Positions 2,377 to 58,642 of a DNA stretch of 64,000 bases are shown piece after piece. Location of the stretch: contig CAZFBA010000004.1 in assembly GCA_964517135.1 (NCBI GenBank), positions 68,360 to 132,359 on the forward strand, read 5' to 3'. Position 1 is the first letter of the stretch; every line of letters begins with the position of its first letter. The DNA is from an uncultured Gammaproteobacteria bacterium (lineage in GTDB: Bacteria > Cyanobacteriota > Vampirovibrionia > JBFMGH01). A program made the translations under genes and the position numbers. The notes beneath the pieces were generated by a model. It was given only the letters and a program-made list of their open reading frames with translations, ran no database searches and had not been told where the DNA came from.

Positions 2377-3711
2377 TTATACCCGGGCCCCGGTTTTAAA
2401 TTGTTTGATAACACCCTCTGTAGCCTGAACCTGGCCGGGATCATTGATGGCTGAAAGCCATTCCTCTGGGTTTGTGGCATGTTGCACCCTTAAATTGCCA
2501 CTATTGAGCGATACTGCTGGTATAAACTGCCTCCTAAATTCTTTATATTCCTGTTCATTTTGTTTGTTTTCATCCGGGTTTTTCTTGAATTTATCCATAA
2601 ATGAAACAACTTTTTTAGAAAAAGCATTGTTAAAGAAGCCAAGTGCGATACAAAGAACACCAATATTCATAATGAGCTGGTCAGACAGGGCTTTAATGCC
2701 TGTTAATTCAGCTTTACCAAGCTTTGCACCGCCTCTCTGGAAGAATTTTGTCAGCGGGCCAGCAGCAGCATTTGAAAGCGGTCTGCCAATGCCTTTCATA
2801 GCAAGTATACCGATACCTTCATCTATAAAGCATCTTATGGCAACATAAGGCTGCCCACTGAATAAAGCTATAACCGGCCTCACAATTGCATTAGCCATCA
2901 TATTACGGGTTATCCATTCGCCGCCAGCGGTAGCCTGCTTTGTAAAGTAAGATGTATGACCCTGTGCCCAGTTGGCCATCTTGCCTTTGAGATTACCAAG
3001 AGAGCCCTGTAGTTTTCTAAACATACCTGAATTTTTTTGAAGAAAGCTTACAGTGCTTTTTATGCCTTTTGATAAAGCATCTGATGCAATTGGTCTGCCT
3101 GTAAGAGCTCTGCCAATCATGTTAAGACCTATAAAGGCACCGGCAGCGCCGAGAACAGAAAAGATCATTTTGTCTTTTTTCTTGTCTTTAGCTTCTTCTT
3201 CAGGAGTTAATTGTTTTTTATCTTTTCTGAAAGGCTTACCTGTAATTTTTTCACTAAAGAAATCCATTACTCTGCCGACATAGCGAGTATTTAAATATGT
3301 ATAAGCAATTGCGGCAGCGTTAAAGAGACCATACTTAACAAATTCACCTGCACCTTTGGCAGCATCACCAGTCAGTTTCAATACATCTTTAGAAACTTTA
3401 GCTGCAATCTTATCAAATGGTCTTTTTAACAGTGCCTGTGCAGTAAAGCCAACAGCCGACAGGGCAAATATCCAGGCTGCAGCATATATTTTTTCATCTT
3501 TTTCGGCGTTTTTATCCATTAGGGTTACAATTGGCCTCAACGCCATAATGGCTAATGAGGTCGACATAGTAACCATACCTGCATCATTACCTACTTTGCC
3601 CAGTGTATTTAACAATTTACTGGAGCCAAAAGAAGGAGAACCTTTTGCCAGAGAAGCGTTTTGACCTGGCATAAAAGTTTTATTCGTTTGTAGAGGTGTA
3701 ATACCGCTCAT
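2377..3711 (-). CDS. Hypothetical membrane-associated protein with N-terminal PSFG motif and internal two-fold similarity
   Basis: Long ORF with SD (GGAGA); several hydrophobic helices; MALRPIV / IVRPVI repeated; no recognisable domain. Confidence 0.75.
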   Translation of the reverse strand: MSGITPLQTNKTFMPGQNASLAKGSPSFGSSKLLNTLGKVGNDAGMVTMSTSLAIMALRPIVTLMDKNAEKDEKIYAAAWIFALSAVGFTAQALLKRPFDKIAAKVSKDVLKLTGDAAKGAGEFVKYGLFNAAAIAYTYLNTRYVGRVMDFFSEKITGKPFRKDKKQLTPEEEAKDKKKDKMIFSVLGAAGAFIGLNMIGRALTGRPIASDALSKGIKSTVSFLQKNSGMFRKLQGSLGNLKGKMANWAQGHTSYFTKQATAGGEWITRNMMANAIVRPVIALFSGQPYVAIRCFIDEGIGILAMKGIGRPLSNAAAGPLTKFFQRGGAKLGKAELTGIKALSDQLIMNIGVLCIALGFFNNAFSKKVVSFMDKFKKNPDENKQNEQEYKEFRRQFIPAVSLNSGNLRVQHATNPEEWLSAINDPGQVQATEGVIKQFKTGARV

Positions 3712-4246
3712 TATTTCTCCAGAGGTAATAATGCAAAATCATTTAATCAAGATATTGCTTGTTAAATAAAAAGCATTCTAGCGAATATTATCTCAGAGGT
3801 TGAATTTTGATCGCCCAGTCGTCAACATTAAGAGACATAAATAGTATTTCAAGGGTGTTGACAAAAAATTAGGATGCTACATATTAAATGCCCCTCAAAA
3901 TGATTTGTTGCTAGCAGTTTAGGCTAAAAATATCGGGCTATTATGCAATCTATCTTATATCAAGAGTTTTACAGATTTCAAAAAAAAAATATTTGTTTTT
4001 ACAATTTTTAATGTTCGTCAAGCACCATTTAAAACCCTTTTAAAAATTTCTTTTTTTATTTTTCACTCATAGCATAGCTAAGCAGCTCAAGATCAATGAA
4101 AATCTAGATAATGTAGTATAAACACCAAGGTTTAACATACAAAAATCTCTCTATATTTAAAAGCTCTATAATAAACGTTATAAGTGATTAGATTTTAAAA
4201 GATACAGGGCGGGTAAATTTATCATTATGTTTTATGGCTTGGTATA

Positions 4247-5386
4247 TCAGGTATTGCTGCTTGAAAGAGTTTTGATTGAGACGTCGTTGAAATAATATCC
4301 GAGTATTTGATAAGCATTATAACCTCTATCTGCAAGGTCTTTAGCACCCCACTGTGACATTCCAACACCGTGCCCGCTGCCCTTACCATTAATTATAATA
4401 TTATTTGAGTTGATATAAATGGAATATAGACTGCTTGGCAGGTCAAACATTTTTCTGAATTGTTCGCCATCTATCAGGGCAGAGCCGGCAGTGCCTGTGA
4501 GCCTTAGTTTTTTGATCCGGCCTGTTTCTGTGCGTGAAACAGGTAAGATAGCTGAAAGTTCACCTACACTATATCCTCTTGCTGATAGTTTAGAGCTAAT
4601 CTGGTTCTTTTCTAAGATCTTTGACCACTGTGCACGGGGTGATTGCTGATCATAGTCTCTTACAATCCTTACAAAACCTATTTTACCGGACCATGCATCA
4701 TTTTCTGTTACACCGCCCGAGCTTGAGTGATAATAAGCGGGTATTATACGGCCATTATGGACAATAACCTGTCCTCTTGTTGTTTCTACTGCTACATTTG
4801 AGCGATATGTTTCTGCTGAAGCACCTTTATAGACCTGATCATTGGTAGATGTGTCAAGATCATAGCCTTCTGAGCGGCGTTTGTTTAAATTAGCCAGTGC
4901 ATAGCTTCTTGCGGCTATTGCCTGAGCTTTGAGAGCTTCAGTATTCCAGTTAGCTGGCATTTCAGCAGGTACAACCCCTTTAATATAGTCTTCAAGTTCA
5001 ACTACATTTACCACAGTAATGTAATTTCCTTTTGCGAGTAGTTTTAAGCTACCTCTGTACCAGCGACTATCGCAATATACGAGAGAATTATTATCTACAG
5101 GTATAATGTATATTGCATCCTGGCCGGTATTATAAACCTTATTAACAGAGTCTTTTTTAATTAACACTGTATTATTTTCGGCGTATACTGAATATTTTTC
5201 CATTCTATTAATTTTAATAAGAGGTTTATTTGTACGTTTAGCAACTATAGCACTATCATGTTGTGCTCCGATAGAGCTTTTTGCAACACGTGTTTTTAAG
5301 CCAATACGAATGTCAAAGGCAAGCGCATCAGCTGCTGTCAGGATAATCAATAATATTGCAAGTATAAGAGTATAAAAATGTTTCAT
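4247..5386 (-). CDS. SpoIID/LytB domain peptidoglycan lytic transglycosylase
   Basis: Signal peptide; VNVVELEDYIKGVVPAEMP, EALKAQAIAARSYA, DQVYKG, GHGVGMSQWGA. Confidence 0.92.
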   Translation of the reverse strand: MKHFYTLILAILLIILTAADALAFDIRIGLKTRVAKSSIGAQHDSAIVAKRTNKPLIKINRMEKYSVYAENNTVLIKKDSVNKVYNTGQDAIYIIPVDNNSLVYCDSRWYRGSLKLLAKGNYITVVNVVELEDYIKGVVPAEMPANWNTEALKAQAIAARSYALANLNKRRSEGYDLDTSTNDQVYKGASAETYRSNVAVETTRGQVIVHNGRIIPAYYHSSSGGVTENDAWSGKIGFVRIVRDYDQQSPRAQWSKILEKNQISSKLSARGYSVGELSAILPVSRTETGRIKKLRLTGTAGSALIDGEQFRKMFDLPSSLYSIYINSNNIIINGKGSGHGVGMSQWGAKDLADRGYNAYQILGYYFNDVSIKTLSSSNT

Positions 5387-5929
5387 TTAATTAATCAGTT
5401 AAGTATTAGATGGTTCATTAGTCTTTGTATTAATCCCTATAATAATTATCAGTTACAAGTATACTGTATGTCATCGACTGTATAAATTATGTTAATGGTT
5501 GAAATCATACAAAAATAAATTTTTTAAAGCGCCAATATTCCAGTTATAGTGATTTCATGCTCTTAAAGAAGTCATCAAAAGTCCTGGCAGGTAAATCCAT
5601 GAATCAACCGGGTTAAACTTAATTGCCATAATACATTTAATATCCTGTTAAGCAAAAAAGCCTGACAGGATAGTAATTTAATATAAGTTTACATAAAATA
5701 TTACAATCCAGAAAGAAATTTTATATCGTTAGTATATACTCTCTATATATCCACTATATATTTTAAAAGGATTCAGGATTTTTTCCTTAATAATTCATAT
5801 ACCACAGTTGTTTCAGGGGGGCAATTCGAAAGTCTTGATTGTTTTTTTATCTATAGAGGAGTTTTTCTATTTAGTTACGTTTTTCTCAAGAAATTAAGTT
5901 ACGGAATCTATACGGGAGGAATTGTTTTT

Positions 5930-6946: not shown

Positions 6947-7008
6947 AGAAAGTAAATGAAATTTATTTAGAGTAATAAAAGCTTAAACTAACTGCCTTAA
7001 CATTTTAT

Positions 7009-7032
7009 CCCGGGAAACCGGGCTTTTTTTTT
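7009..7032 (+). terminator. Intrinsic terminator
   Basis: CCCGG-GAAA-CCGGG stem followed by a T run, downstream of 5930..6946. Confidence 0.85.
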
Positions 7033-7099
7033 GAGAGTGACCCTGCAATCAATCTCTTTTTTGCTCCACCAGGCATGTAGATCGCTTTAATGATTTATT

Positions 7100-8422: not shown

Positions 8423-8434
8423 AAAACACTCCAG

Positions 8435-10249
8435 TTAAAGTTTTTCAGGGGGTATATCAACAAAATTACGCTTATAATCTTCAACAAAAGCTTTTTCACA
8501 GTTGTTGAGCATTGAAAAATCAATCAGGTTTTCATCCAGCGGAGCGTATGTAAGGCATTTGACGATCAACCAGCCTTCTTTATCAGGGTGGTCAGCAAGT
8601 GTGACAATATTTTCTATTCTAACGCCTCCCCAGCCCTCAAGATAGATACCTGGTTCTATTGAAAATACCATATTTTTCTTAAGTTTTATAGAACCACTTA
8701 AGCCATAAATTATTGATGGAGGTGATTCATGTACACAGATCCCTATGCCATGTCCTGTGCCGTGATTATAGTCAAAACCGTAATTTGTAATAATAGACCT
8801 GACAATACCATCAAGATAAACACCGTCACTATCCGGCGGTATTTCAGCCCTTAGACCCCTTATAGATGCTTTTAGAACAATAGTATAAATGCGTTTAAGT
8901 TTTTCATCTGGTCTGGCTTCACAGCCACCAGCAACAAAAGTCCTTGTAAGGTCTGTAGCATAACCTCCCTGGAAGTATGTTCCACTATCTAACAAAACAA
9001 GGCTGTTTTTATGAACCTTTTCATCTTCACTGGCTGCTGTATAGTGTACTATAGCAGTGTTTTTACCGGTAGCAGAAATTACCTCAAAGCTGGGTTTATA
9101 GCCCCCATAGGCTTTAAAAAGCATCAGTATTTTTTGTTTAATGTCATTTTCTGTGAGTATTTTGCCGGCATTAATATCTGTATTTACCTGCTCAATAAGT
9201 CTTTTAAAAGCATTATCTGCTTTCTGTAGGCATTTTTTAATATATTCCAGCTCGACATCATTCTTAATGGCTTTCATCTTCTTAACAGGATTTATATCCA
9301 GTGCTATAATCTTGCACTGTTTACTGATTAGCGTATTAAGCTTTTCCTGTAAAGCGCATGTTGTCGAGGTAGGATCATAACCTATGTGGAATTTATCCTC
9401 CTGTCTTGAGATATATGAACGTAAAGTATCCTCCATATCTTTAATAGATAAAATACTAAAACCATCATACATTTGTTTAAGGCATGTACATCCAAACTTT
9501 TCAGGATCAGAAAAAATGAAAGCTTCGTTGTTAGAAATAAAAAGATAACCTTTAAAGCTTGAACTCAGTTCTATTTCATCACTGCGGAGGTTTGTAATAT
9601 AGGAAACCTCATCAAGTTTGGTTAAAAAGAGGGCATTAATATTCAGTTTATTAAACTTTTGCCTTACAATCTGGAGTTTTTTCAAAGCTGACAATCCGCT
9701 AATTTCCTCTGGCACGGTATAAACCGGTTTAAGTTCTTTTTTTTCTGGTTCAAGCTTAATTTCATCAAGAAAGGTTTTACTGAGGGGAGTAAAAACAGTT
9801 GTTTTAGTTACAGCATTTATTTTTTCTCTCATATATGAAAGCATTTTAACGCTAAACTGACGAGGATCATACCCTGTAATAAGGTTTTTGCCTCTTGAGA
9901 GTTTTTGAATGATTTTAATATGACGATCCTGCAACAGTTCATTAATACGGTTGCCTTCATCGTCTATACCGACCTTTTCAATAGTATAAATATTCTTATC
10001 TACCTGATATTCGGCCTGTGTGTGATATCGTCCGTCAACAAGCAGGTATGCATTGTCAAGGGTAATAAACAAATCTCCTGCACTGCCATTAAAACCTGAT
10101 AGAAAGGTTCTCAGGCAGGTGCTTTTGTCAACATAGTCATTTAAAAACTCATCTTTTGAAGTAATAATCAGCGCATTTAATGAATTTTCCTTCATTAAAA
10201 CTCTTAAATGTCCTAGTCTTTCTGAAATTGTGGGTAATAACTGAATCAT
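8435..10249 (-). CDS. Xaa-Pro aminopeptidase (M24B, long form)
   Basis: SGFNGSAG, DGRY, LLDSG...TDLTRT, HGTGHGIG..VHESP, SIEPGIY...GVRIEN. Confidence 0.92.
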   Translation of the reverse strand: MIQLLPTISERLGHLRVLMKENSLNALIITSKDEFLNDYVDKSTCLRTFLSGFNGSAGDLFITLDNAYLLVDGRYHTQAEYQVDKNIYTIEKVGIDDEGNRINELLQDRHIKIIQKLSRGKNLITGYDPRQFSVKMLSYMREKINAVTKTTVFTPLSKTFLDEIKLEPEKKELKPVYTVPEEISGLSALKKLQIVRQKFNKLNINALFLTKLDEVSYITNLRSDEIELSSSFKGYLFISNNEAFIFSDPEKFGCTCLKQMYDGFSILSIKDMEDTLRSYISRQEDKFHIGYDPTSTTCALQEKLNTLISKQCKIIALDINPVKKMKAIKNDVELEYIKKCLQKADNAFKRLIEQVNTDINAGKILTENDIKQKILMLFKAYGGYKPSFEVISATGKNTAIVHYTAASEDEKVHKNSLVLLDSGTYFQGGYATDLTRTFVAGGCEARPDEKLKRIYTIVLKASIRGLRAEIPPDSDGVYLDGIVRSIITNYGFDYNHGTGHGIGICVHESPPSIIYGLSGSIKLKKNMVFSIEPGIYLEGWGGVRIENIVTLADHPDKEGWLIVKCLTYAPLDENLIDFSMLNNCEKAFVEDYKRNFVDIPPEKL

Positions 10250-19307: not shown

Positions 19308-20138
19308 ATGACAGCATTTAGTGCTCAAATGCACCAGCACCAATTGAATCTGATCAAGCAGATGGGTAAATATCAAAATAGTATCGCAGAATACAACTTT
19401 AATAAGTTAATCAGGTACTACAAAGATGCTATTAACTCAGCTCAAACGTCAGATGAAGCCAGAGGTATAGCTCAAGCGCTGGAAGGTGTTCTGGCCCAAA
19501 GAGGTCAGGGGCTCGCCGACGTTCAGGGACTTAATACTGATAAACTTACCGGCAATCAGGCAGGCCTCGAAGGGTTGGATCCTGGAAAGGCCGCAAAGCA
19601 AGCCCGTAAAGAACAGTATAAGCCAATGTTTAAAGATCTTGAAGCCGAGTTTAATGTCGCCAGCAATAAAGATGGTGACTGGGCTAAAGCCGCCAAAGAG
19701 AATGAAAATGTACGTATACTAGACAAAAATGGCCAGGATGTCACCCAGACCTTCAATGGTGACAAGTTAAAAGGCTATACGCTTGAGATTAATTCTCAAA
19801 AGTATGGCAAGGTTCAAATTCAGCCCGGCGGAGATGGCAATATTAACGGCGGCGACGACAAAATATTAATGGTTGGCGGTCAGGCCGCAGCCGGAAATAT
19901 GATGGCTGGCCTCCAGGGTATTAATAACCCCACTCAACAGGCTGGCTTATTAAACCCGCTTGCAGGCATTATGGGCCTTAACCCCACTGAACAGGCCGCA
20001 GCCGAAGCTAATCAATATGCTATGCAGCCAGGCATGTTCTCTGAAGCACAGATCAAAAGTCTCATTGCCGCAATCCTGAATCAATCACTTGCTTCTATTG
20101 AACAGAAAGAATATCTTCAACAGTTCAATGTTGCCTGA
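19308..20138 (+). CDS. Gln/Asn-rich hypothetical protein, paralog A
   Basis: SD GAGGAGAG; N- and C-termini nearly identical to 21788..22678; no signal peptide. Confidence 0.85.
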   Translation: MTAFSAQMHQHQLNLIKQMGKYQNSIAEYNFNKLIRYYKDAINSAQTSDEARGIAQALEGVLAQRGQGLADVQGLNTDKLTGNQAGLEGLDPGKAAKQARKEQYKPMFKDLEAEFNVASNKDGDWAKAAKENENVRILDKNGQDVTQTFNGDKLKGYTLEINSQKYGKVQIQPGGDGNINGGDDKILMVGGQAAAGNMMAGLQGINNPTQQAGLLNPLAGIMGLNPTEQAAAEANQYAMQPGMFSEAQIKSLIAAILNQSLASIEQKEYLQQFNVA

Positions 20139-20215
20139 TCGTAGCCTGCCCATAGCGTATATTTCCATATAAGCACTGTTAGAAATACTTCAGGCAACAA
20201 AAACAAGAAGGAACA

Positions 20216-20248
20216 GGGTTAAGGGCTTGCCTGTCAGGCCTTTAACCC
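20216..20248 (+). terminator. Hairpin, possible terminator or processing site
   Basis: GGGTTAAGGGCTT...AGGCCTTTAACCC stem; weak U-tract. Confidence 0.5.
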
Positions 20249-20392
20249 CTCCGGTTTAACAAAATTCTATGCTGTTGCTAAAAAACTGTTAACTTAACTG
20301 AAATCCAGTCACTGTAACTCTTTACTGATCTAGCTAAGTGATTTTACACAGATAAACTTGAGTGAACCTGTCTATCTGGTACCACCAAATAA

Positions 20393-20920
20393 CTCAAGAA
20401 TTTCACTGTATATATTATGTATAATGATTGTAAATAAACAACATCCCTGACAAGATAATTGTTCTGGTATTTCTTTAACCTTATTAGAGAGAGAATTAGA
20501 GTTTTTATGGTACTGAAAGTTTTGAAAGCATTATCAGGTGCGTCTATTAAGTGACAGTTAGTTTTTATCTATTAACCTAAACTGTTTAAGCTAGTTTTAA
20601 CGCTTAAAAATTATGCAAAAAGGTAATTTAACCTGCATCAAAATTCATTTTCATAATGCTTTTCAAAATACTTAATTTAATGCACGACTCTCAACATCGT
20701 CTAAATATGCGTAAAATCAGTTATTATTCACGAAGTATCTTGAGAGAGAATGGAATACCTCCTGTTCCATGCCCGCTCTCTTTCATTAACACAATGAAGA
20801 CTAAATATTGTGCGAGGTTTGAACATTAAGAGGAGTGTAAAAGATGTCATCTACAGTATTTAACCCGGGCTAGCTCCTTTAACTGAACTAATAATTCAGT
20901 ATTTAGTCTAATGACTATAT
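20393..20920 (+). promoter_or_regulatory. Promoter and long structured leader, copy B
   Basis: TATAAT at 20420-20425; homologous to 18760-19140; hairpin 20742-20781, stem 20799-20810/20897-20908. Confidence 0.6.
20844..20873 (+). CDS. Candidate 9-aa leader peptide MSSTVFNPG
   Basis: SD AGAGGAG 8 nt before ATG; the SD can pair with CTCCT immediately after the stop. Confidence 0.3.
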   Translation: MSSTVFNPG

Positions 20921-20929
20921 AAAAATCTA

Positions 20930-21436
20930 GTGACAAAGAGGAGAGAAAACGTGATAAGGGATCATCTTTACAACTACGGCATTGAAGACTCAGAAGATAA
21001 GCTGAACTTTATCAACAGAAACATTGCAAAAAACATTATGACACTTGCTGTAAATATGCTTGATGAATCCAAATTGAATAAAGTTCAAAGCATGCTTTTA
21101 AGTCTAACCAGCTCAGAGCTCAGATCACTAAAAAATTACCTTGATTATCAAAAATATCGCTGTAAAGCTTTTTTGAATACTCAAGAGTATCGCATCATAA
21201 AAGAGATATCAAAAATTGTTCTGTATTCCAGACCTCAGGACCCCTATCTTAAAGAAATTTTAGATGAATATAATGCAAACCTGTCTTTTATAGAAGAATT
21301 GAAAGGAAAAACAACCCAGACAGACAACCCCAAAACACTAAACAAGCTCTATAAAACCATGGATGCCATCAACAAAAGGAATACGGAACTCATTGAAGAG
21401 GTTAACAACTACAAAAAAAGAAAGGAGGATTCATAG
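20930..21436 (+). CDS. Hypothetical helical / coiled-coil protein
   Basis: ORF; likely start is GTG at 20952 behind SD GAGGAGAG. Confidence 0.7.
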   Translation: MTKRRENVIRDHLYNYGIEDSEDKLNFINRNIAKNIMTLAVNMLDESKLNKVQSMLLSLTSSELRSLKNYLDYQKYRCKAFLNTQEYRIIKEISKIVLYSRPQDPYLKEILDEYNANLSFIEELKGKTTQTDNPKTLNKLYKTMDAINKRNTELIEEVNNYKKRKEDS

Positions 21437-21562
21437 ACGAAAACCCCTTTTAAATGTTTACTCTTAAAGATTGAAAGGAAATAATACTTTTTATTTACAA
21501 AACAGAGAGGAGACTAACAACTTACAAAATCTCTTTATTCATATCCCGAGGAGGTGTCTTTA

Positions 21563-21733
21563 ATGCAAAATATTGAAACCTTAATGAAAGAACTAAATCT
21601 TGGCGACGAAATCATCTCAAATACACTTTTAAAGATTGATTTCATCTGCACCAAAAACGGTTACAGAGAGGATGTAAGAAATCTGCAGGCTTTAACCCTC
21701 ACCGGCAACGGCGACGGTAACGGAAATAACTAA
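21563..21733 (+). CDS. Small 56-aa protein not in the ORF track (MQNIETLMKELNLG...GNGDGNGNN)
   Basis: Very strong SD GAGGAGGTG 6 nt before ATG; fills the gap between co-directional genes. Confidence 0.65.
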   Translation: MQNIETLMKELNLGDEIISNTLLKIDFICTKNGYREDVRNLQALTLTGNGDGNGNN

Positions 21734-21787
21734 CCTTAAAGCATTTTAAACATCCTAACAGGTCAGTTAAAGAAGAGGAGAGAGAAA

Positions 21788-22678
21788 ATGACAGCATTTT
21801 CAGCTCAATTGCATCAGCACCAGTTAAATTTGATACAGCAAATGGGTAAATATCAAAACAGTGTAGCTGACTACAACTTCCAGAAGCTTATCAGATACTA
21901 TAAAGATGCAATAAATTCAGCGCAAACCTCACAGGAAGCAAGAGGACTGGCAGAATCACTTCAGGGTGTATTAGCCCAGAAAGGCCAGGGCCTTGCCGAT
22001 GTACAGGGTTTAAATACCAATCTGCTTAACGGAAACCAAAATCAGGCTAATCCGAATCAGGCTAACCCTATAGCAGGGAAGGCTGATGCCGGCAAGCAAA
22101 AAGGCAGCGAAGAAGACAAAAAGATCATTGCAGACCTCAGTCAGGAATATGGCATAGATGTTAAAAAAGCAGGCACCACAAAAGACTGGCTGGAAAAAGC
22201 TAAAACTGATCAAAATGTCAGAGTTCTTGATAATACTGGCAAAGATGTCACTGCTGAACGTGAAGGCAGAATCAAAAAAGGTGATATACTTGAAGTAAAT
22301 TCAAAACAACACGGTTTGGTAAGGATTTCTGTCGGCGGCGACGGTGAAATCAATGGCGGAGACGATAAAGTTATTATGAAAGGCGGCCAGGCTGCTGCAG
22401 GAAACATGATGGATGGTCTCAATCAGATTAACAACGTCCCGGGTCAGCAACAGGCCAACCCCGCACAACCAAACGCTGTTAATAACCTTGCTCAAGCTCT
22501 TGGTATTACACCTGATCAGGCTGTTCAAAACCAGTTAGCCATGAATCCGGATGCAACCAACCAGCAAGCTCTGTTTACTGAAGCTCAGATAAAAAGCCTG
22601 ATTGCTGCTATTTTGAATCAGTCATTGTCTGCTATTGAACAGAGACAATATATGCAACAAATGCAACAAGTTTTTTAA
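21788..22678 (+). CDS. Gln/Asn-rich hypothetical protein, paralog B
   Basis: MTAFSAQ.HQHQLNLI.QMGKYQNS N-terminus, GGDG.INGGDDK core and EAQIKSLIAAILNQSL C-terminus shared with 19308..20138. Confidence 0.85.
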   Translation: MTAFSAQLHQHQLNLIQQMGKYQNSVADYNFQKLIRYYKDAINSAQTSQEARGLAESLQGVLAQKGQGLADVQGLNTNLLNGNQNQANPNQANPIAGKADAGKQKGSEEDKKIIADLSQEYGIDVKKAGTTKDWLEKAKTDQNVRVLDNTGKDVTAEREGRIKKGDILEVNSKQHGLVRISVGGDGEINGGDDKVIMKGGQAAAGNMMDGLNQINNVPGQQQANPAQPNAVNNLAQALGITPDQAVQNQLAMNPDATNQQALFTEAQIKSLIAAILNQSLSAIEQRQYMQQMQQVF

Positions 22679-22693
22679 GCTTTAGAAACCTTA

Positions 22694-22878
22694 TATAAGA
22701 GATCAGTGCATAACTTAAAAAAATCGATTTTCAAACCCAGATCCCGCCCACCCTAAAGGAAGGCATTGGGTCTCACTCACAGGCTATGCCTGCTCGTTCA
22801 ACCCATATATTAAATTTATATTTTTTGAAAATCGAAAACAATAAATTTGTCATTCTGGTTATGCATCAGTATTTATAA
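22694..22878. mobile_element. MITE-like non-coding element, copy 1
   Basis: About 185 bp; imperfect terminal IR (TGCATAAC / GTTATGCA), inner IR TCGATTTTCAAA / TTTGAAAATCGA; second copy at 52907-53095. Confidence 0.75.
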
Positions 22879-23021
22879 GAGAGTTTACTAAAATCTAAAA
22901 ACTATTTATACCTGAATCAGGCGTATTTATATATATATATCAGGTATCCTCTGTCAGGCTGATAGTCAGGCTCTGTAAACTGTAATCATTTTAGTAAAAC
23001 TATTAACAGAGGAGAGATTCT

Positions 23022-29123: not shown

Positions 29124-29247
29124 AAGCTTATTTATCCCTGTTAATAGATGAAACCCTATTATTAATAATAAGATGTGTTGCAAGTATTATCATCCACTAG
29201 CTATAGTATTTATAATATTATGCCCGCACAGGTTACATTTTAAACGC

Positions 29248-35945: not shown

Positions 35946-35966
35946 AAGACCTCCTGCAATAAATAT

Positions 35967-36497: not shown

Positions 36498-36503
36498 AGC
36501 TTT

Positions 36504-37769: not shown

Positions 37770-37810
37770 TGCTTATGGCTCCTTTCAAGTTGTATATATT
37801 ATGTCTGAAA

Positions 37811-38755
37811 CTAGCTTGAAATCTGAACGGTGGCAGATTTTTCACCGTATTTTTCCTGTAGTTTCTTTTCTGGTAGATATTTATTTTCAAGTTCTTTGTA
37901 TTCTGAGAGACCAACAAAGTCTGTATATTCTTTAAATGATGTAATCCAGTGGGTTTGTCCATCAAGAATGCCTGTTGGTGAGTTTTTCAGAGCTGTAAAG
38001 AAATCTTGAAGAGCTTTATGTACTACCTGAATTGAAGCTACAGGTATACTAACTCTGGCAACACCCATTTTAGCAAGCTCAGGGATAGGTATGAGTTCAG
38101 TTTTAACTCCTGAAATTGCATCCATCAGGTTAACAGAAAGAGGTCCATTTACCCCTTTAAGGGCATTTTCGATATCATTTTTAGTTTTTATACCGTCAAT
38201 AAAGACAAGGTCGGCACCAGCTTCAAGGTAGATATTGCATCTTCTGATTGCTTCATCAATTCCTAATAGTGCAAAACAATCTGTGCGGGCATTTACGACT
38301 ATATCTGATCCATAATGTTTTTTAACATCATTAATGGCTCTAATTTTGCCTGCCATTTCTTCTGCTGATATGACTTCTTTACCCTGCATATGACCGCATC
38401 TTTTTGGGAAGAATTGATCTTCAATATTTAGCCCGGCGATATCCATTTGAATAAGTCTTTCAGCGATCCAGGCAGCGTTAACAGCGTTGCCACCACCTGT
38501 ATCAATATCGGCCATAACAGGAATTGAAACTGCCTGAGAAATGTTCCAGGTAGCATTAAGTACGTCTGCCATCTGTACAAGCCCTACATCAGGTTTAGCA
38601 AGCCATGATCCGGCCAGACCATAACCACTTATTTGAATAGCTTCAAAACCACAGGCCTCAATTATTTTTGCACTAAATGCATCGTGACATCCCGGTACGA
38701 CCAGTGCTCTTCTTTCGTTAAGTTTGTTTTTAAGGATAGTGCTACGTTTTTGCAT
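37811..38755 (-). CDS. Isocitrate lyase / PEP mutase family enzyme (PrpB / dimethylmalate lyase-like)
   Basis: PGCHDAFSA, ADIDTGGG, IEDQ..PKRCGH, ARTD. Confidence 0.9.
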   Translation of the reverse strand: MQKRSTILKNKLNERRALVVPGCHDAFSAKIIEACGFEAIQISGYGLAGSWLAKPDVGLVQMADVLNATWNISQAVSIPVMADIDTGGGNAVNAAWIAERLIQMDIAGLNIEDQFFPKRCGHMQGKEVISAEEMAGKIRAINDVKKHYGSDIVVNARTDCFALLGIDEAIRRCNIYLEAGADLVFIDGIKTKNDIENALKGVNGPLSVNLMDAISGVKTELIPIPELAKMGVARVSIPVASIQVVHKALQDFFTALKNSPTGILDGQTHWITSFKEYTDFVGLSEYKELENKYLPEKKLQEKYGEKSATVQISS

Positions 38756-39166: not shown

Positions 39167-39832
39167 CTATTGTTTTATGATGAAATTATTTTCATTGTTT
39201 TGTTCAATAATGATGTCATCAGTGAGTTTGCCTGCATTTACGATACCTGAAGTGATGTTTTTCTCTTTACTTAGCAGCCCTCTGAGGCTTTGTTGTGTAA
39301 ACCCTTTGCCTTCTTGCAGGTTTATTTTCATAACTCTAATTTTATCACGTATTTCCGGGTTACCTGCAATAGCTTTAAGCCCGTGCCCTTGTTCAATGTG
39401 TGCAATTTCATGAGCCAGAACACCTACTAATTCAGCCTCATTAGATATAATTTTCAGGGCTCCTCTGGTGATAAAAATAAAACCACCCGGAACAGCAAAT
39501 GCATTAATCTCTGGTGAGTCTAAAACATAGAATGAATATTCAATATCTGGTCTTGTAGAAACTTTTTCAGCTATGCTTTGCCCTATTTTATTAACATATT
39601 GGTTTACTTTCGAGTTTTTGTAATAGCCATACCTTTTAGCAAGAATAACTGCTGACTGAAAGCCAATTTCTTTTTCTTCTAGCAGAGTGAATCCATACTT
39701 CCCGGCGACATGATCAGTTTTGGTTGAAATGTTTTCCTGGTTATTATTGTTCTCTTCTGAAGCAATTGTTGCAGAACACGGAATTAAAACGGCTAAAATG
39801 AGACCTGTTATTATGGCATACTTTTTTATCAT
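39167..39832 (-). CDS. M48-family metalloprotease-like exported protein, C-terminally short
   Basis: Signal peptide; INAFAVPGG.IFITRG, EAEL.GVLAHEIAH; downstream E.EAD motif absent. Confidence 0.8.
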   Translation of the reverse strand: MIKKYAIITGLILAVLIPCSATIASEENNNNQENISTKTDHVAGKYGFTLLEEKEIGFQSAVILAKRYGYYKNSKVNQYVNKIGQSIAEKVSTRPDIEYSFYVLDSPEINAFAVPGGFIFITRGALKIISNEAELVGVLAHEIAHIEQGHGLKAIAGNPEIRDKIRVMKINLQEGKGFTQQSLRGLLSKEKNITSGIVNAGKLTDDIIIEQNNENNFIIKQ

Positions 39833-40053: not shown

Positions 40054-41577
40054 TCAATGTAGACTATATGGAACCTCTTTAATCTTGTCATTGTTTAAAA
40101 ATGCAGAGATCCCTTTATAAAGGTGGAATAAATCACCTTTATCTGCTATTTCAACAGGTGCATGCATAGAAAGAATAGGTATTCCGATATCTACAACATC
40201 CATATTCAGGTTTGTAGCCAGGTACATACCTATGGTTGCACCGCCTCCAACATCCTGATTATAGGCAAATGGTTGATATTTAATGTTGTTACGATCAAAA
40301 ACTCTGGTAACTGATGCAGTAGCTTCAGGTAGTGAGTTTTTCCATCCTTGAAGCTTCATAATAACGCCGTGCCCGAGGCGACAGGCATTTGTTTTTTCTT
40401 CACGAGAAGGATCAACTGGATCAACGGCAGTTGAAACATCTGCTGAAAGAGCTAAACTCTTTTTAAATGCTCTTCTAAGATCGTTTTCATTATAGTTACC
40501 TTTTTGAGCTTCTATCAAAGATCCTATAGCCTGTTTAAAGAAGTCTGATTTAGCCCCATAATTATTCCAGGAACCTATTTCTTCATTACCAAAGAATGCT
40601 GCAACCGTTGTAAATTTAGGTGTTTCTTTCTGCTCAATTTCAGCTTTCAGGCTTGCAAAGACACAACTCTTGTCATCATGTCCGTATGCTCCTATTAATC
40701 CCTGATCGAAACCAACACCTCTGGGGTTTTCAGCAGGTACCAGGTTTAATTCAGCATGAATAAGGTCATCTCTGCTAATGTTATAGCGTTCTTTCAGAAC
40801 TTTTTCGACATAATCTGATATCTCGCCTTCAACATCAGAATTCATTGCAACTATAGGGTTCATGTTTTCAGCTTCAAACTCTTTTGATTTATTGTTGCCG
40901 CTATCAACATGTGGTGCCAGATCAGATATGACGAATGTGCTTTCACCGGGTTTATTACCTATATTAATGTTAACCTCTCTGCCATCACCGGTTATTACTT
41001 TCCCTTCCAGTGCAAGGTGGCGGTTAACCCACTGATATCTTTTTGATCCCAGGCCGTGCATCATTGTTTTAAAGAGGCAATAGCCCTCAGAATCTTTTAA
41101 AGGTTTTGCTTTTAATGTTATATGCGGTGAATCAAGGTGTGATCCAACAAGTTTAATGCCAGATGTTACCGGCTTTTCACCAATAGTAGCAAGGACTACA
41201 GCTCTATCATTATTAACAAAGTATACTTTATCTCCGGGTTTTACCTGTGACTCAGGATCAAAAGGCTTATATCCATTAGCTTTGGCTGTTTTAATCACTT
41301 CTTTAGCAGCTTCCAGGTTTGACTTTGTTTTCTCAAGAAAAGTCATATATTCCTGTCCGAAGGCCTGTATAGCCTGTTTTTCCTGCGGTGTAGCTGTACC
41401 AAGGATAGTTTCAGGCTTTTTAGCTTTTCCTGTGAAGTATACATGAAGCAGATTTGTATTTGCTTTGGCTTGTATATTATTTATAGCAGCTTGATTGAGT
41501 TTTATTTCTTTATTTTTGGCCTGAAAAGAATGCTGTAAAACTTTATTAGTATTAACTCCTGTTACTGATAACGTCAT
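40054..41577 (-). CDS. M18-family aminopeptidase with N-terminal extension, copy 3
   Basis: HLDSP, GHDDK, NEEIGS, SADV, SMHAP metal and catalytic motifs; leader ...LLHVYFTG. Confidence 0.9.
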   Translation of the reverse strand: MTLSVTGVNTNKVLQHSFQAKNKEIKLNQAAINNIQAKANTNLLHVYFTGKAKKPETILGTATPQEKQAIQAFGQEYMTFLEKTKSNLEAAKEVIKTAKANGYKPFDPESQVKPGDKVYFVNNDRAVVLATIGEKPVTSGIKLVGSHLDSPHITLKAKPLKDSEGYCLFKTMMHGLGSKRYQWVNRHLALEGKVITGDGREVNINIGNKPGESTFVISDLAPHVDSGNNKSKEFEAENMNPIVAMNSDVEGEISDYVEKVLKERYNISRDDLIHAELNLVPAENPRGVGFDQGLIGAYGHDDKSCVFASLKAEIEQKETPKFTTVAAFFGNEEIGSWNNYGAKSDFFKQAIGSLIEAQKGNYNENDLRRAFKKSLALSADVSTAVDPVDPSREEKTNACRLGHGVIMKLQGWKNSLPEATASVTRVFDRNNIKYQPFAYNQDVGGGATIGMYLATNLNMDVVDIGIPILSMHAPVEIADKGDLFHLYKGISAFLNNDKIKEVPYSLH

Positions 41578-41587: not shown

Positions 41588-43093
41588 CTAGTTTACGTAG
41601 TAATTCTTTAATGAAAGGTAATGCTCAAATAAATCAGACTTGGAGATGAGTTCAAGTGGAGCATGCATACCTATAACAGGAATACCCGTGTCAACTACAT
41701 CTGTATTGTTTTGAGTTGCCATATAATTGCCAATGGTTCCACCGCCGCCTTTATCCTGATTGAAGGCGAAAGCCTGAAGCTGAACGTCTTTTTGTGTTTG
41801 GTTAAATTTTGCAGAAGCTTCAGGTGTAGAGAATAGCTGACCATTTTTGTAGAGTGACGGTCCATAACCAAGTTTTGAAGCGTTGGTTGCTTCTTCTGCC
41901 TCAGGTCTCATTGGGTCAATGGCTGTTGATACATCAGCAGAGACAAGTATACTGTTTTTAAAGGCTCTTCTAACCAGGTTTTCATTATATTGTCCCTGTG
42001 TATATTCAATGGCTTCTGAGATTATAGCTCTTGTATCATCTGATTGTGCACCATAATTATTCCAGGAGCCAATTTCTTCATTTGAAAAATGTGTTGAAAT
42101 TAAAGTATGCTGAGGAGCACTCTTTCTGGTAGCATCGAAAAGTGCCTGCATTGAGCAGTATGCAGATGACTTATCATCTGAACCAAAGCCAGATATCATA
42201 CTTTTATCGAAACCTACATCTCTTGCTTCACTGGCAGGAACCAGAGCAAGCTGTGCATTAATTAAATCATCAGCATCAATGCCGTATTTATCTTTTAATA
42301 TTTTTTCAACCTGTTTGGCAACTTTATTTGTTGCTTCAGGACTCAGTGTATCATCTTCATTCAGGCCTACAATCGGATTTAGCTTTTCTTTCGGGAAAGC
42401 TTCGCCAAGAGTTTGAGATTTGTTTCTGTCTACATGAGGTGCCAGCTCAGGAATCATAAATACCGGCTCACCCGGTTTGTTACCTATGTTGACGTTTAAG
42501 ACGGTTCCATCTTTTTTAACAACCTTTCCTTCAAGTGCCAAGTTTCTTTGAGTCCATTGATGGGCCTTAATACCGCCATGAACCATTGTTTTAAATATTG
42601 CAAACCCGCCCGGGCCTTCTTGAAGAGGTTTCGCTTTTAACATAATGTGTGGTGAATCAATGTGAGATCCTACAAGTTTAAAGCCATCAGTAACAGGTTT
42701 TTCACCAATAACAATAAGTGAAACAGACCGGTCTCTGTTAACTCTATAGAACTTATCACCGGCTTTTGGCGGTTTTTTAGGCACATCTTCCGGCCATGGT
42801 TTATAGCCTTCTTTCTTGGCCCGGCTTACAATCTCTGTAACGGCTGTCATATCAGTTTTTGAGTTATTTAGAAAACTCTTATAATCTTCTGCAAAGGCTA
42901 TAATGTCATTCCGTTTTTTTGCATCAGCACTTGACCAGAGTGATTTTAACCCTGTGAAATAGAGTTTTGTCAACTCTGGAGATGGCTTGGCCAGTGATAC
43001 AGGCTTCTGGACACCCTCAAACGATGGTTTGCTTGTGGTTTCTTTCTTGTTAACTTTTAAATTTGGAAAATTTGCGATACTGTTTACGTGCAT
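41588..43093 (-). CDS. M18-family aminopeptidase with N-terminal extension, copy 2
   Basis: HIDSP, GSDDK, NEEIGS, SADV, GMHAP; leader PSFEG...LTKLYFTG. Confidence 0.9.
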   Translation of the reverse strand: MHVNSIANFPNLKVNKKETTSKPSFEGVQKPVSLAKPSPELTKLYFTGLKSLWSSADAKKRNDIIAFAEDYKSFLNNSKTDMTAVTEIVSRAKKEGYKPWPEDVPKKPPKAGDKFYRVNRDRSVSLIVIGEKPVTDGFKLVGSHIDSPHIMLKAKPLQEGPGGFAIFKTMVHGGIKAHQWTQRNLALEGKVVKKDGTVLNVNIGNKPGEPVFMIPELAPHVDRNKSQTLGEAFPKEKLNPIVGLNEDDTLSPEATNKVAKQVEKILKDKYGIDADDLINAQLALVPASEARDVGFDKSMISGFGSDDKSSAYCSMQALFDATRKSAPQHTLISTHFSNEEIGSWNNYGAQSDDTRAIISEAIEYTQGQYNENLVRRAFKNSILVSADVSTAIDPMRPEAEEATNASKLGYGPSLYKNGQLFSTPEASAKFNQTQKDVQLQAFAFNQDKGGGGTIGNYMATQNNTDVVDTGIPVIGMHAPLELISKSDLFEHYLSLKNYYVN

Positions 43094-43604: not shown

Positions 43605-45143
43605 CTAGCCTCTATTTAGGTAATAAGCCATAAGTGCAGAAGAAAATTCGTATAAATCTCCTTTGGATATGATTTCATTGGGTGAGTGCATACCTAAAAT
43701 AGGGACGCCAAAATCAACAACATCAGCATTATAATTGGTTGACAGGAATGTACCTATTGTTCCCCCACCCCCTTTATCCTGATGGAAAGCGTGTGTCTGG
43801 GTCTGCGTTCCTCTGATCATATTCATAAAGCGGGCTGATGCTTCTGGTGTAGAGTAGGTTTTACCATCCTTCTGAATAGATGGACCAAACCCAATTTTTG
43901 TTGAATTAGTTGCCTCTTCAGCATCAGGTCTTACCGGATCAATAGCTGTTGTTACGTCAGCTGAAACAAGAAGACTATTTTTGAAGGCATTTTTAACTGC
44001 AAGAGAGTTATGATGCCCTGTTGTATATTGTAAAATTTCTTCTACCATTGTCTCTGTATCATTTGAACGTGCTCCATAGCCATTCCAGGAGCCTATTTCT
44101 TCGTTGCCATAGTGGGCTGCAATAAGCGTCTGCTCTGGTATCGGGTTTACTTTAAGTGCTGAAAACAGAGCTTCGTTTGCTGCATAGACAGATGACTTGT
44201 TGTCAGAGCCGTACCCTGCAACGAGAGCCCTGTCAAAACCAACATCTCTGGCTTGATTAGCTGGTACAAGATCAAGCTGAGCATTGACAAGATCATCTCT
44301 TGTAACACCGTAATGCTTGTAAAGAATCTGTTCTACGTGATCAGAGATGCTTCCTTCTTGATTTGGGTTAAGGTTTATTGATTCAGTAGAGCCTGCAATA
44401 GGATTTAGAGCTTCTTTTGTAATATTACTTTTACCACCATCTACATGAATAGCCAGTTCCGGAATTACAAACACAGGGTCACCCGGTTTGTTTCCTATGT
44501 TGACCTTAATAACAGTGCCATCCTGCCTTACAATTTTGCCAACAAGAGCAAGATTTCTCTGGGTCCACTGCCCGGGCTTTATGCCACCATGTACAATAGT
44601 TTTAAAGATTGACATGCCACCTGCACCATCCTGAATAGGTTTAGCTTTAAGGCTTATATGAGGTGCATCTATATGTGTACCGATCATTTTAAATCCGTTA
44701 GATATAGGTTCTCTGCCTACAACTATAAGTTGAACAGAGCGATCTTTGTTAACTCTGAAGAATTTTTCTCCGGGTATCAGCTGTCTGTTAGGCTGTTGTT
44801 GTGGCCAGGGCTGGAATCCTTCTTGCATTGCCCTGTTAACGACTGCTTCTACTCCTGAAAGATCTGTTTTAGCTGAATCAAGAAAATGTTTATAATGCTC
44901 ACCAAACTGAAAAATACGCTCTCTTTTAGCTGGATCTGCATTGGCCATAATAGATTTAACAACGGGTTTTTGAGGTAGTTGTGGCATTGGTGTGTAATAC
45001 GCTTGCATTAAACCTGCTGACGGTTGTGCCAGAGGCTGGCTTGAAGATATTAACTGGCCATAAGGAACTGGCTGTGGAGGGTTTTGGGCTGATCCATTAT
45101 AATTTAACACTTGTGGAGATACTTGAGATACCAACATAGACAT
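43605..45143 (-). CDS. M18-family aminopeptidase with Pro/Gln-rich N-terminal extension, copy 1
   Basis: HIDAP, GSDNK, NEEIGS, SADV, GMHSP; leader ...PSAGLMQAYY. Confidence 0.9.
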   Translation of the reverse strand: MSMLVSQVSPQVLNYNGSAQNPPQPVPYGQLISSSQPLAQPSAGLMQAYYTPMPQLPQKPVVKSIMANADPAKRERIFQFGEHYKHFLDSAKTDLSGVEAVVNRAMQEGFQPWPQQQPNRQLIPGEKFFRVNKDRSVQLIVVGREPISNGFKMIGTHIDAPHISLKAKPIQDGAGGMSIFKTIVHGGIKPGQWTQRNLALVGKIVRQDGTVIKVNIGNKPGDPVFVIPELAIHVDGGKSNITKEALNPIAGSTESINLNPNQEGSISDHVEQILYKHYGVTRDDLVNAQLDLVPANQARDVGFDRALVAGYGSDNKSSVYAANEALFSALKVNPIPEQTLIAAHYGNEEIGSWNGYGARSNDTETMVEEILQYTTGHHNSLAVKNAFKNSLLVSADVTTAIDPVRPDAEEATNSTKIGFGPSIQKDGKTYSTPEASARFMNMIRGTQTQTHAFHQDKGGGGTIGTFLSTNYNADVVDFGVPILGMHSPNEIISKGDLYEFSSALMAYYLNRG

Positions 45144-53807: not shown

Positions 53808-53816
53808 TAAAATGTA

Positions 53817-55691: not shown

Positions 55692-55693
55692 AT

Positions 55694-56059: not shown

Positions 56060-56065
56060 AATAAA

Positions 56066-56085
56066 TGGCCGGTTTTTGCCGGCCA
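56066..56085. terminator. Hairpin between convergent genes
   Basis: TGGCCGG...CCGGCCA. Confidence 0.6.
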
Positions 56086-56100
56086 CTGAAGAAATAATTT

Positions 56101-57426: not shown

Positions 57427-57764
57427 TTTAAAGCTCCTCTACAAGATAGTTTTACCACCAATTATTACAAACCTCTAACTTAAAAATAGAGTATAGATTC
57501 ATTGTAAAGCATAAAATTATAAAGTCCATACCCTGAAAACAGTTATATAATAAAAACAGAGCCTTTCTAAATTCTGCATAGCTTTTAATTTTGAGAAATG
57601 ACAGAAACTATTATCGTCAAATACTTTTAAAATCCTGAAAAATTGATAATCTAGAAGGCGTCTGCATTATCAATTTTATTTTTTGCTGCCTGACAGGTGG
57701 CAAAGTTTTTTTTGAGCTATTATAGTGGTGAGTGTATCGTAATATATGGTTTTAAATCTTATTT

Positions 57765-58238
57765 ATGTATAATCTTGAATTTAGAAAGATTTACACTGAC
57801 CGAAAATTCTGCCTTTGCGGGTGCAGAAATGTTATACAGGAGGAAAACTGGGGATTAAGAATATTTTTAGATGGTAAAATAACTTCTATTGAAGAGGTTT
57901 TAGAGATTATTGAAAAATTTGAGTTTGAGGTTAAAGATCTTTCGGCTAAAACAATTGTCTGTAAGTATTGTGGTCATTGTTGTCTTCACGGGCCTGAACT
58001 TTCTGAAAAAGAGCTTGAGTATTTGTCTGCTAACTATCCGGAATATAGAGAAGACTACATGCAAATTATATCAGGTAAACCCTGTCAGTTTGGAGGAGAA
58101 AATACAGGTCCCTGCAAATTTCCTGAAAATGCAAGACCGTTTCAGTGCCGCATTTTATATTGTGAAGCAAATATAGTTGGATTTGAGTCTATGTATAATT
58201 TTTTGGGAGGTTTTTTAGGCTGGACGAGCCTCAATTAA
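57765..58238 (+). CDS. YkgJ-like cysteine cluster protein
   Basis: CxxCGxCC, C.F, C, RPFQCR pattern. Confidence 0.7.
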   Translation: MYNLEFRKIYTDRKFCLCGCRNVIQEENWGLRIFLDGKITSIEEVLEIIEKFEFEVKDLSAKTIVCKYCGHCCLHGPELSEKELEYLSANYPEYREDYMQIISGKPCQFGGENTGPCKFPENARPFQCRILYCEANIVGFESMYNFLGGFLGWTSLN

Positions 58239-58642
58239 ACTTTTAAAGATTGAAGCATCTTTCTAACGTTGTCAAAACCCAGTTCTTTAGCTATTGAATT
58301 AGCTGTGCCGGTTGCAATATCTTTTCCACCGCCGTGAACAGGAATAGGGATATTGACAGCCTGAGGTTGTATGCCGATTTTTGTCGCTACATGTGCCGGT
58401 ATTTTACCTACTAGATGGGTTCCATGATTACCATGACCTTTTGATAGACTTAAATTTAAAGCTTTTGCAACTTTTGATATTTTCCTTAAGTCGAGTACCG
58501 CACCCTTGAAGGCAACTTCATCTACTGGAGGCTGTCTTAAAAGCTTATTTGGTTGACCCGGTGCCATTTTTTGAGGATGATTATTATGTGTTATTGGCTT
58601 TTCAAAGCCTCTAAATCTCACTTCAGATAGATTGATAGACAT
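58235..58642 (-). CDS. HicA-like RNase domain with N-terminal F-x-G extension (start reassigned to MSINLSEV)
   Basis: GTH, IPIPVHGGGKDIATGTANSIAKELG match the HicA pattern (GSH...VP.H..KD...GT..SI...G); SD AAGGTGG. Confidence 0.72.
   Translation of the reverse strand: MSINLSEVRFRGFEKPITHNNHPQKMAPGQPNKLLRQPPVDEVAFKGAVLDLRKISKVAKALNLSLSKGHGNHGTHLVGKIPAHVATKIGIQPQAVNIPIPVHGGGKDIATGTANSIAKELGFDNVRKMLQSLKV

Follow-up and report, generated by a model that had tools for sequence, protein, structure and literature searches.

We describe a putative N-terminal leader, polar and without a hydrophobic core, that ends in a short F-x-G motif and precedes otherwise unrelated proteins encoded in a 64,000-nucleotide stretch of DNA (the window; G000:C4:68360-132359) from an uncultured member of the Vampirovibrionia. 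The genome (G000) comprises 4.06 Mb in 78 contigs with ~37% G+C, and close homologues of the window proteins lie in metagenome bins named Vampirovibrionia or Cyanobacteriota. The leader occurs on roughly 45-70 otherwise unrelated G000 proteins, and we consider the chances evenly balanced that its motif marks a lineage-specific, Sec-independent N-terminal export or targeting leader. An export character is supported indirectly by sequence comparisons, namely apparent replacement of signal peptides, coexistence of paralogues with different address types, and a Sec-like depletion of cysteine. An earlier reading of the window made without database searches (the sequence-only reading) had proposed a lineage-specific secretion, chaperone-binding or cleavage tag linked to flagellar export; the lineage-specific N-terminal tag on unrelated cargo holds up, through its enrichment and through leaderless paralogues, and no positive sign of the flagellar link was seen.

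All motif counts are based on 3430 open reading frames (ORFs) from the whole genome, called crudely as the longest ORFs without overlap, each taken from its most upstream start. The first 80 residues hold 135 of 393 occurrences of [ST]F.G (rate ratio 1.66), 84 of 220 of SF.G (1.96) and 869 of 3051 of F.G (1.27). This excess lies within residues 0-80, and the mirrored pattern G.F[ST] has no N-terminal excess in the same ORFs. An unbiased scan (10 gapped k-mer masks, N-terminus against the rest, hydrophobic stretches masked) was topped by single-family patterns (flagellin, Walker A, CxxC), with 'SF' (640 vs 457 expected, p 4e-16) and 'F.G' (501 vs 374, p 3e-10) as the top patterns not due to a single family, so that the motif discovery suggested by the sequence-only reading recovers both as N-terminally enriched. 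A fixed leader rule, which asks for the motif within residues 8-90, a polar window upstream of it and no hydrophobic stretch, matched 44 of 3003 proteins, vs 14.0±3.0 after N-terminal shuffling (maximum 21 in 20 shuffles), 15 with mirrored N-termini and 12 of 2011 in an internal window. N-terminal frequency is therefore above that of shuffled, mirrored and internal sequence, as a genuine tag was expected to show, and the difference between 44 matches and 14.0 in shuffles corresponds to ~30 proteins bearing the motif beyond chance. The second half of the proposed code, L...Y[FY], failed as a general motif: it is depleted in N-termini (ratio 0.65) and is found in 6 of 72 curated leaders vs 95 of 2936 other proteins. 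Three of those six are paralogues of the M18 aminopeptidase, and L...Y[FY] is mostly a feature of that family.

Leader anatomy was taken from this working (curated) set of 72 proteins, which was picked partly by eye and includes variants such as [AVYP]F.G. Leader length ranges from 12 to 102 residues (median 53.5), and 34 leaders contain one copy of F.?G, 25 two, 11 three and 2 four. Median positions are 31 for the first Phe (10th percentile 10) and 51.5 for the last, and copies are spaced by a median of 25 residues. The consensus is [VILP]-[ST/A]-F-(x)-G, with the last copy abutting the folded domain. Among 122 motif instances, position -2 is V, I, L or P in 76 and position -1 is S, T or A in 78, the latter being partly built into the rule. 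The residue before Gly is absent in 29, T in 18, K in 17, Q in 11, A in 9 and otherwise variable, and positions after Gly, including +3/+4, show no hydrophobic preference. Leaders are rich in Gln, Pro, Asn, Ser and Lys, hold Asp and Glu at 0.33-0.52 of background and are net positive in 96% of the set, composition figures that are partly circular with the selection rule. An AlphaFold2 model of the window M18 paralogue B (48-sequence alignment) gives residues 1-34 a predicted local distance difference test (pLDDT) score below 50; a weak helix follows at 39-47, and the chain is confidently folded from about residue 50 on, so the leader is predicted to be disordered.

These leaders do not resemble the standard signals. 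Sec signals have a hydrophobic h-region of about 7-15 residues behind a basic n-region; the maximum 10-residue Kyte-Doolittle mean is <=2.0 in 22/22 scorable M18 and 28/28 M28 in-group N-termini, against values above 2.0 in 63/67 and 52/56 of the outgroups. Direct inspection of the listed leaders found no twin arginine (Tat signals carry S/T-R-R-x-F-L-K ahead of an h-region) and no h-region of the Tat type. Type IV prepilins have a short basic leader and G|F-T-L-I-E before a hydrophobic helix; here F-x-G is followed by polar sequence, and the true prepilins of G000 look different. NCBIfam models left the leader uncovered in all 10 proteins scanned, and no description of such a leader was found in the literature searched, in which the motif itself was not among the search terms. 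N-terminal processing of the L27/Prp type was considered and rejected, as ribosomal protein L27 has no N-terminal extension in G000. A search for whole-leader homology also failed: a profile built on the M18 leader stopped growing at 6 proteins when iterated. What different cargo families have in common is the short motif alone. The M18-leader profile did match 4 non-M18 leaders at E<0.05, with 0 decoys.

Six window proteins carry the motif, and checks of translations and coordinates confirmed all nine instances named by the sequence-only reading. Its further claim, a polar N-terminal segment without hydrophobic core, is borne out in five of the six; in 31842..33956 the motifs are internal. 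Three of the proteins are encoded in tandem and were identified by Pfam as M18 aminopeptidases (40054..41577, 41588..43093 and 43605..45143, all on the reverse strand). Paralogue A (40054..41577) has a leader of residues 1-50 ending LLHVYFTG, with ANTNLLHVYFTG at residues 39-50 (41428..41463) and the PF02127 match beginning at residue 80 (E 1.9e-70); its relatives P0031-P0036 retain LL.VYFTG. In paralogue B (41588..43093; leader residues 1-48), KPSFEG at residues 22-27 (copy PSFEG; 43013..43030) is followed by KPSPELTKLYFTG at residues 36-48 (42950..42988), which contains the copy LYFTG. The first copy is kept as F.G in 11 of 12 close relatives (one has TFG) and the second in all 12. Paralogue C (43605..45143; leader residues 1-50) has the variant QPSAGLMQAYY at residues 40-50 (44994..45026), an LMQAYY-T-P end without Gly, and its relatives P0019-P0027 have [AV][YF]Y.P in common.

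The other three window proteins are unrelated to these. The 444-amino-acid membrane protein at 2377..3711 (reverse strand; no Pfam match) has a leader of residues 1-29 ending SFG, with GSPSFG at residues 24-29 (3625..3642). Of the 81 genomes of the class used for distribution searches, only G000 and G001 yielded members of its family. The G001 orthologue has a different leader, yet IAFKG is present, and two G000 paralogues align from their own residue 5 to residue 30 of the 2377..3711 protein. A 704-amino-acid membrane protein at 31842..33956 (forward strand; no Pfam match) contains TRFMG (residues 218-222; 32493..32507) and EPSFTG (residues 229-234; 32526..32543), which precede a second copy of the module that follows the 2377..3711 leader, a duplication read by eye from the translations. 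The HicA-like protein at 58235..58642 (reverse strand; 135 amino acids from MSINL) has a leader of residues 1-47 with EVRFRG at residues 7-12 (core VRFRG; 58607..58624) and DEVAFKG at residues 41-47 (core VAFKG; 58502..58522). Its PF07927 match is borderline (26.8 bits, just below the cut-off of 27). The only relative found, 44% identical, keeps VRFNG and VAFTG, and the spacer differs, with indels.

In two enzyme families the leader appears to replace a Sec or lipoprotein signal peptide at the same junction, judging from aligned N-termini. Among M18 proteins of the in-group, 22 of 33 could be scored, with a hydrophobic core in 0 and the motif in 22; among outgroup M18 proteins from other phyla, 63 of 67 scorable (of 88) have a hydrophobic core. 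The corresponding M28 figures are 0 with a core and 25 with the motif among 28 scorable in-group proteins, and 52 with a core among 56 scorable (of 92) from other phyla. Proteins left unscored lacked the anchor pattern or start Met (M18 11/33 and 21/88; M28 outgroup 36/92). In both families F-x-G aligns at the position of the outgroup cleavage site or lipobox. Sequence comparison also indicates that the motif is conserved while the remainder of the leader drifts, in M18, M28, the HicA-like protein, the G001 orthologue of 2377..3711 and the G001 polyphosphate kinase PPK2. Sec and lipoprotein signals and the leader are alike in N-terminal place, in lying at the junction with the mature domain and in cargo Cys content. 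The leader, unlike these signals, has no hydrophobic core, is about twice as long, bears a repeated motif and ends in F-x-G rather than in A-x-A (Sec) or a lipobox (lipoproteins). Ordinary Sec signals coexist with it in G000 (~628 by a crude rule). In the window itself, an M48 peptidase with an ordinary Sec-type signal (MIKKYAIITGLILAVLIPCSAT...; 39167..39832) adjoins the three leader-bearing M18 genes, placing both address types side by side.

Pfam named 18 of 20 leader proteins scanned outside the window. The cargo includes peptidases (M28, two M20 of which one is PepT-like, and M24), enzymes of nucleotide and polyphosphate metabolism (5'-nucleotidase, DHH phosphoesterase, PPK2 and two adenosine deaminases), glycogen-related enzymes (two amylase/branching-like proteins, glucoamylase, GH100 invertase, debranching enzyme and GT5 glucan synthase), a parvulin, a carbon-nitrogen hydrolase and a weak lysozyme-like match. 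It includes a second set of glycogen enzymes and family-specific membrane proteins, and the 'effector arsenal' flavour that the sequence-only reading gave to the window cargo fits these Pfam families. Several cargo proteins have paralogues with another address. Parvulin exists in three forms, leaderless (92 amino acids), with a lipoprotein-type signal (143) and with the leader (179), and 5'-nucleotidase in three more, with a signal peptide, a membrane anchor or the leader. PPK2, M24, MalQ-like, PepT-like, GT5 and branching-like proteins each occur as a leaderless and a leader copy. The same leaderless/leader PPK2 pair is present in G001, where PPK2 keeps the motif. The leaderless M24 protein, an Xaa-Pro aminopeptidase-like enzyme, is encoded in the window (8435..10249, reverse strand); it is 41% identical to the leader-bearing G000:C14:26542-28608, and its residue 8 aligns to residue 69 of the leader copy. 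The tag is absent from such leaderless housekeeping paralogues, in line with what had been proposed for ordinary cytoplasmic proteins.

Exported bacterial proteins avoid cysteine. The mature parts of 50 soluble cargo proteins have a mean Cys content of 0.58%, vs 0.58% for 325 crudely defined Sec-signal proteins (p 0.07) and 1.29% for 1318 proteins without signal peptide or membrane segment (Mann-Whitney p 5e-8). Across seven paralogue pairs there are 13 Cys in 3904 amino acids of leader copies vs 34 in 3110 of leaderless copies (Fisher p 1.6e-4), and the M24 pair has 10 in the leaderless protein vs 1 in the leader copy. Together, signal-peptide replacement, coexisting address types, Cys content and motif conservation favour a leader that takes proteins out of the producer cytoplasm.

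A mechanism consistent with these observations would have the leader carry its cargo out of the producer cytoplasm by a route other than Sec or Tat; the proteins would end up outside the cell, in a host or prey cell, or in a compartment so far unrecognised. Recognition or processing would take place at the last F-x-G, at the leader-to-mature junction, and upstream copies would add binding strength. In its most specific form, which we put forward tentatively as a possibility short of likely, the F-x-G leader is a transit-peptide-like address label of a bacterial sorting pathway not yet described, used by ~50-70 proteins with a dedicated receptor and F-x-G-specific processing, whose destination is neither the ordinary cytoplasm nor the Sec-served periplasm and would most plausibly be a host or prey cell interior or a novel internal compartment. 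Sorting leaders as such are known; the chance that the pathway behind this one is new is substantial. Chloroplast transit peptides are basic, acid-poor, rich in hydroxylated and amide residues, unstructured, ~50 amino acids long and borne by many unrelated enzymes. They share with the leader this composition, loosely repeated Phe/Gly motifs and untagged isoforms alongside, a likeness in composition and logic only. Transit peptides serve eukaryotic import, and G000 offers no plastid or TOC/TIC context. Semi-conserved FGLK-type motifs are reported in chloroplast transit peptides (PMC8645953).

Several points weigh against export. No machinery, receptor or protease was found for the leader in G000. 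GT5 glucan synthase, PPK2, the PepT-like peptidase and DHH phosphoesterase need cytosolic substrates (nucleotide sugars, nucleotides, polyphosphate and oligopeptides), and outside the producer such cargo is sensible only in another cell's cytoplasm or in a compartment supplied with substrate. Some of the cargo spans the membrane several times, and there the basic leader might do no more than remain on the cytoplasmic face. Cys depletion could have other causes in lineage-specific proteins, gene calls that take the most upstream start codon are crude, and ~14 of the 44 rule matches (about a third) are expected by chance.

The cytosolic substrates and the membrane cargo would fit a cytoplasmic binding motif and keep in play a reading without export, in which the leader is a short linear motif that tethers enzymes and membrane-protein tails to a hub (a scaffold, storage-granule surface, condensate, adaptor, or protease/degron system). 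Cargo dominated by storage and salvage enzymes, one to four motif repeats in a disordered basic segment like those of multivalent client motifs, the motif on N-terminal tails of multi-pass membrane proteins, and leaderless and leader copies resembling constitutive and regulated isoforms all agree with such tethering. It leaves unexplained why the leader sits where M18 and M28 outgroups have a Sec or lipoprotein signal, and why cargo is as Cys-poor as Sec proteins and leader copies poorer than their paralogues, and we regard it as doubtful, though a serious contender. No FG-rich scaffold emerged either, since a proteome ranking by F.?G density was topped by ordinary membrane proteins. Near the top of that ranking, the only soluble low-complexity protein is a 115-amino-acid protein with GFGRG/GYGRG repeats (G000:C4:43261-43608).

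The only microcompartment locus of the genome (G000:C28:28728-35217) likewise gives the hub no support, as its aldehyde dehydrogenase carries a different, helical N-terminal peptide. The locus encodes shell proteins and three EutN-like proteins, together with PduS/RnfC-like and class II aldolase-like genes (names read from sequence). Encapsulation peptides of such loci are amphipathic helices of about 18 amino acids on the enzymes, and encapsulation there is not indicated for the leader cargo: the aldehyde dehydrogenase N-terminus is without F.G, and most cargo is encoded elsewhere, membrane proteins included. A leader-bearing M20 peptidase gene lies just upstream of the locus. For encapsulins, no PF04454 match was found in G000, other encapsulin families not being searched.

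The abutment of the last motif copy on the folded domain, and the many hydrolases among the cargo, would also suit a removable propeptide: hydrolases would stay inactive or fail to assemble until a dedicated protease cleaved behind F-x-G, all within one compartment. In yeast, the M18 enzyme aminopeptidase I is made with an N-terminal propeptide, and G000 encodes one C39-like match, a stand-alone soluble cysteine peptidase of 451 amino acids (C29:17473-18828) with a polar, Gln/Glu/Arg-rich N-terminus and no fusion to an ABC transporter; from its sequence it is a candidate leader peptidase, or may itself be cargo. This explanation seems quite improbable to us. The cargo also includes non-hydrolases (GT5 synthase, PPK2, parvulin and membrane proteins), a simple cleavage site makes extra upstream motif copies superfluous, signal-peptide replacement and the Cys pattern are left unexplained, and no protease is linked to the leader genes. 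The C39-like protein also bears on the comparison with double-glycine (PCAT) leaders, which, like the F-x-G leader, are polar, lack a hydrophobic core and have Gly at the end with hydrophobic positions upstream. The F-x-G leader differs in that the residue before Gly is variable and not Gly, and its cargo consists of large enzymes, not small peptides. Double-glycine leaders have Gly-Gly (or Gly-Ala/Ser) at -2/-1 and use C39-ABC transporters, whereas the sole C39-like protein of G000 is the soluble one.

Among secretion machineries, the only one-step systems using an N-terminal signal that were found in G000 are two flagellar-type type III core sets. A survey counting FHIPEP, FliP, FlhB, FliF and the ATPase found FlhA, FlhB, FliP, FliF and FliI twice each, giving two complete sets (G000:C39:9479-14603, C3:97360-102601, C6:95857-108114, C11:71914-75382 and C2:179486-180559), one canonical and the other divergent with flhA between fliH and fliI; two further proteins hold the FHIPEP C-terminal domain only. 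The genome also has four secretins. No VirB4 was found in G000, and of contractile machines neither Phage_sheath_1 in G000 nor VipB in G000 or G001. A search for machinery by neighbourhood, covering four clusters of leader genes and the surroundings of a FHIPEP C-domain protein, gave nothing recurrent.

A rival reading, and a more specific version of export, takes the leader for a type III signal of the flagellar kind, in which a hydrophobic residue at position 3 and a Phe ~30 residues in would direct exit through a flagellar-type gate. We rate this as unlikely. Beside the two core sets, it is favoured by an FlhB gene that adjoins a leader gene and the flagellin array, by the median first-Phe position of 31, by an M.[IV][NQST] start in 12 of 44 rule matches vs 106 of 2959 others (a pattern chosen post hoc), and by the non-flagellated G079, in which the leader rule matches 0 of 308 proteins vs 2.1 expected (a small sample). 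Early flagellar subunits of Salmonella are reported to require small hydrophobic residues 3-7 from the N-terminus and a gate recognition motif at least 30 residues in, docking on FlhBc (PMC8983047). This two-part rod/hook signal would be the nearest mechanistic model by analogy: both have a disordered N-terminus (predicted for the leader) with a Phe motif ~30 in and no cleavable core, and a small hydrophobic residue near the start may be common to the two. The motifs differ, being F-x-x-x-hydrophobic in Salmonella and F-(x)-G here, in several copies, at the domain junction and with no hydrophobic preference after Gly. We know of no conserved junction motif in type III signals.

Three tests of a flagellar export link, which the sequence-only reading had drawn from fliD in the window, gave no positive sign. 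By looser pattern, stricter pattern and profile, G000 has 18, 14 and 17 flagellin paralogues (G000:C2:155944-175900, C14:43299 and C15:88628), sixteen of them in one tandem array that has a sigma-factor-like gene and an FlhB paralogue at its borders. Some leader starts (MRINN..., MRVNN...) resemble flagellin N-termini by eye, but a profile made from 14 flagellins (first 20 residues) matched 17 flagellins, then decoys and unrelated proteins, and no leader. Upstream of most flagellin genes lie a CsrA-like site (ACAAGGATGT-type) and, at the ribosome-binding site, GATAAGGAGA, an arrangement suggestive of FliW/CsrA-type control; three patterns of this 5' element, searched in the 80 nt upstream of all genes, were found before 0 of the 44 leader-rule genes. 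FHIPEP occurs in 66 of 81 genomes, and two FlhA copies are common in the class, across several families, yet flagellated G004, from another family, has 2 rule matches in 300 vs 1.9 expected (a small sample). In family f2, 13 genomes gave one weak FHIPEP match. A complex prediction of M18 leader residues 1-52 with both FlhB C-terminal domains scored 0.01 against a mark of 0.32 and is evidence neither way.

Outside the producer, the substrates of such cargo lie mainly inside other cells, which makes the glycogen enzymes of Chlamydia the closest analogy to the sorting reading and a precedent for type III export. To our knowledge, chlamydial type III signals share no motif. In Chlamydia as in G000, glycogen enzymes and membrane proteins carry N-terminal non-Sec signals, putative ones in G000; the leader-bearing set of G000 comprises GT5 synthase, branching-like, MalQ-like, debranching, amylase and glucoamylase enzymes, and G000, unlike Chlamydia, also keeps a leaderless set. 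Secreted chlamydial glycogen enzymes, and type III signals on them and on Inc membrane proteins, are reported (PMC4829429, PMC3722199).

Family f1 of the Vampirovibrionia is represented in the genome library by two genomes only, G000 and G001. Across the 81 genomes, full-length close matches to the leader-bearing M18, GT5, M28 and window membrane-protein families were found only in these two; a few genomes from other families gave weak or partial matches to M18, GT5 and M28. The extension of PPK2 in family f2 is of another kind, acidic and lacking the motif. By the fixed rule, G001 is enriched (3 of 116 vs 0.8 expected), G016 may be (5 of 298 vs 2.2, two convincing by eye), and G079 and G004 are not, all in small samples. 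The leader is retained in metagenome relatives with as little as ~42% identity, and its use therefore extends to a clade wider than these two genomes.

If the F-x-G leader is a true sorting signal, its sequence would help to recognise the proteins that an uncultured Vampirovibrionia lineage secretes or re-targets, and it might point to a processing enzyme or export route that is new. Large enzymes bearing a leader with a consensus but no hydrophobic core would be a rarity among bacteria, and the leader would be a transit-peptide-like code in a non-photosynthetic sister of the cyanobacteria. Duplicate glycogen, nucleotide and peptide enzymes meant for another place would suggest feeding on or inside another cell. 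Signal-peptide predictors would call these proteins cytoplasmic, so metabolic reconstructions would misplace ~2% of the lineage's proteome.

Among the other window genes, fliD, encoding the filament cap (27354..29183, reverse strand; FliD_N and FliD_C domains), is not a cargo gene, and its ISFSG lies in the ordinary FliD N-terminus. The listed ORF opens with a hydrophobic 20-residue stretch, and the usual FliD N-terminus (MSISFSGLASGL...) begins at an internal Met, so the true start is probably downstream of the listed one. Isopropylmalate/isocitrate dehydrogenase-like, aconitase-family large and small subunit, and PEP-mutase/isocitrate-lyase-family genes (34854..38755) are all leaderless and form an internal contrast of ordinary cytoplasmic enzymes. 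At 19308..24008, two paralogous genes (276 and 296 amino acids), both beginning MTAFSAQ..., are followed by a 328-amino-acid protein that has an HExxH motif and whose N-terminus (MASSTQVINALQQS...) is polar but lacks F.G; these genes might encode variant-leader cargo or be unrelated.

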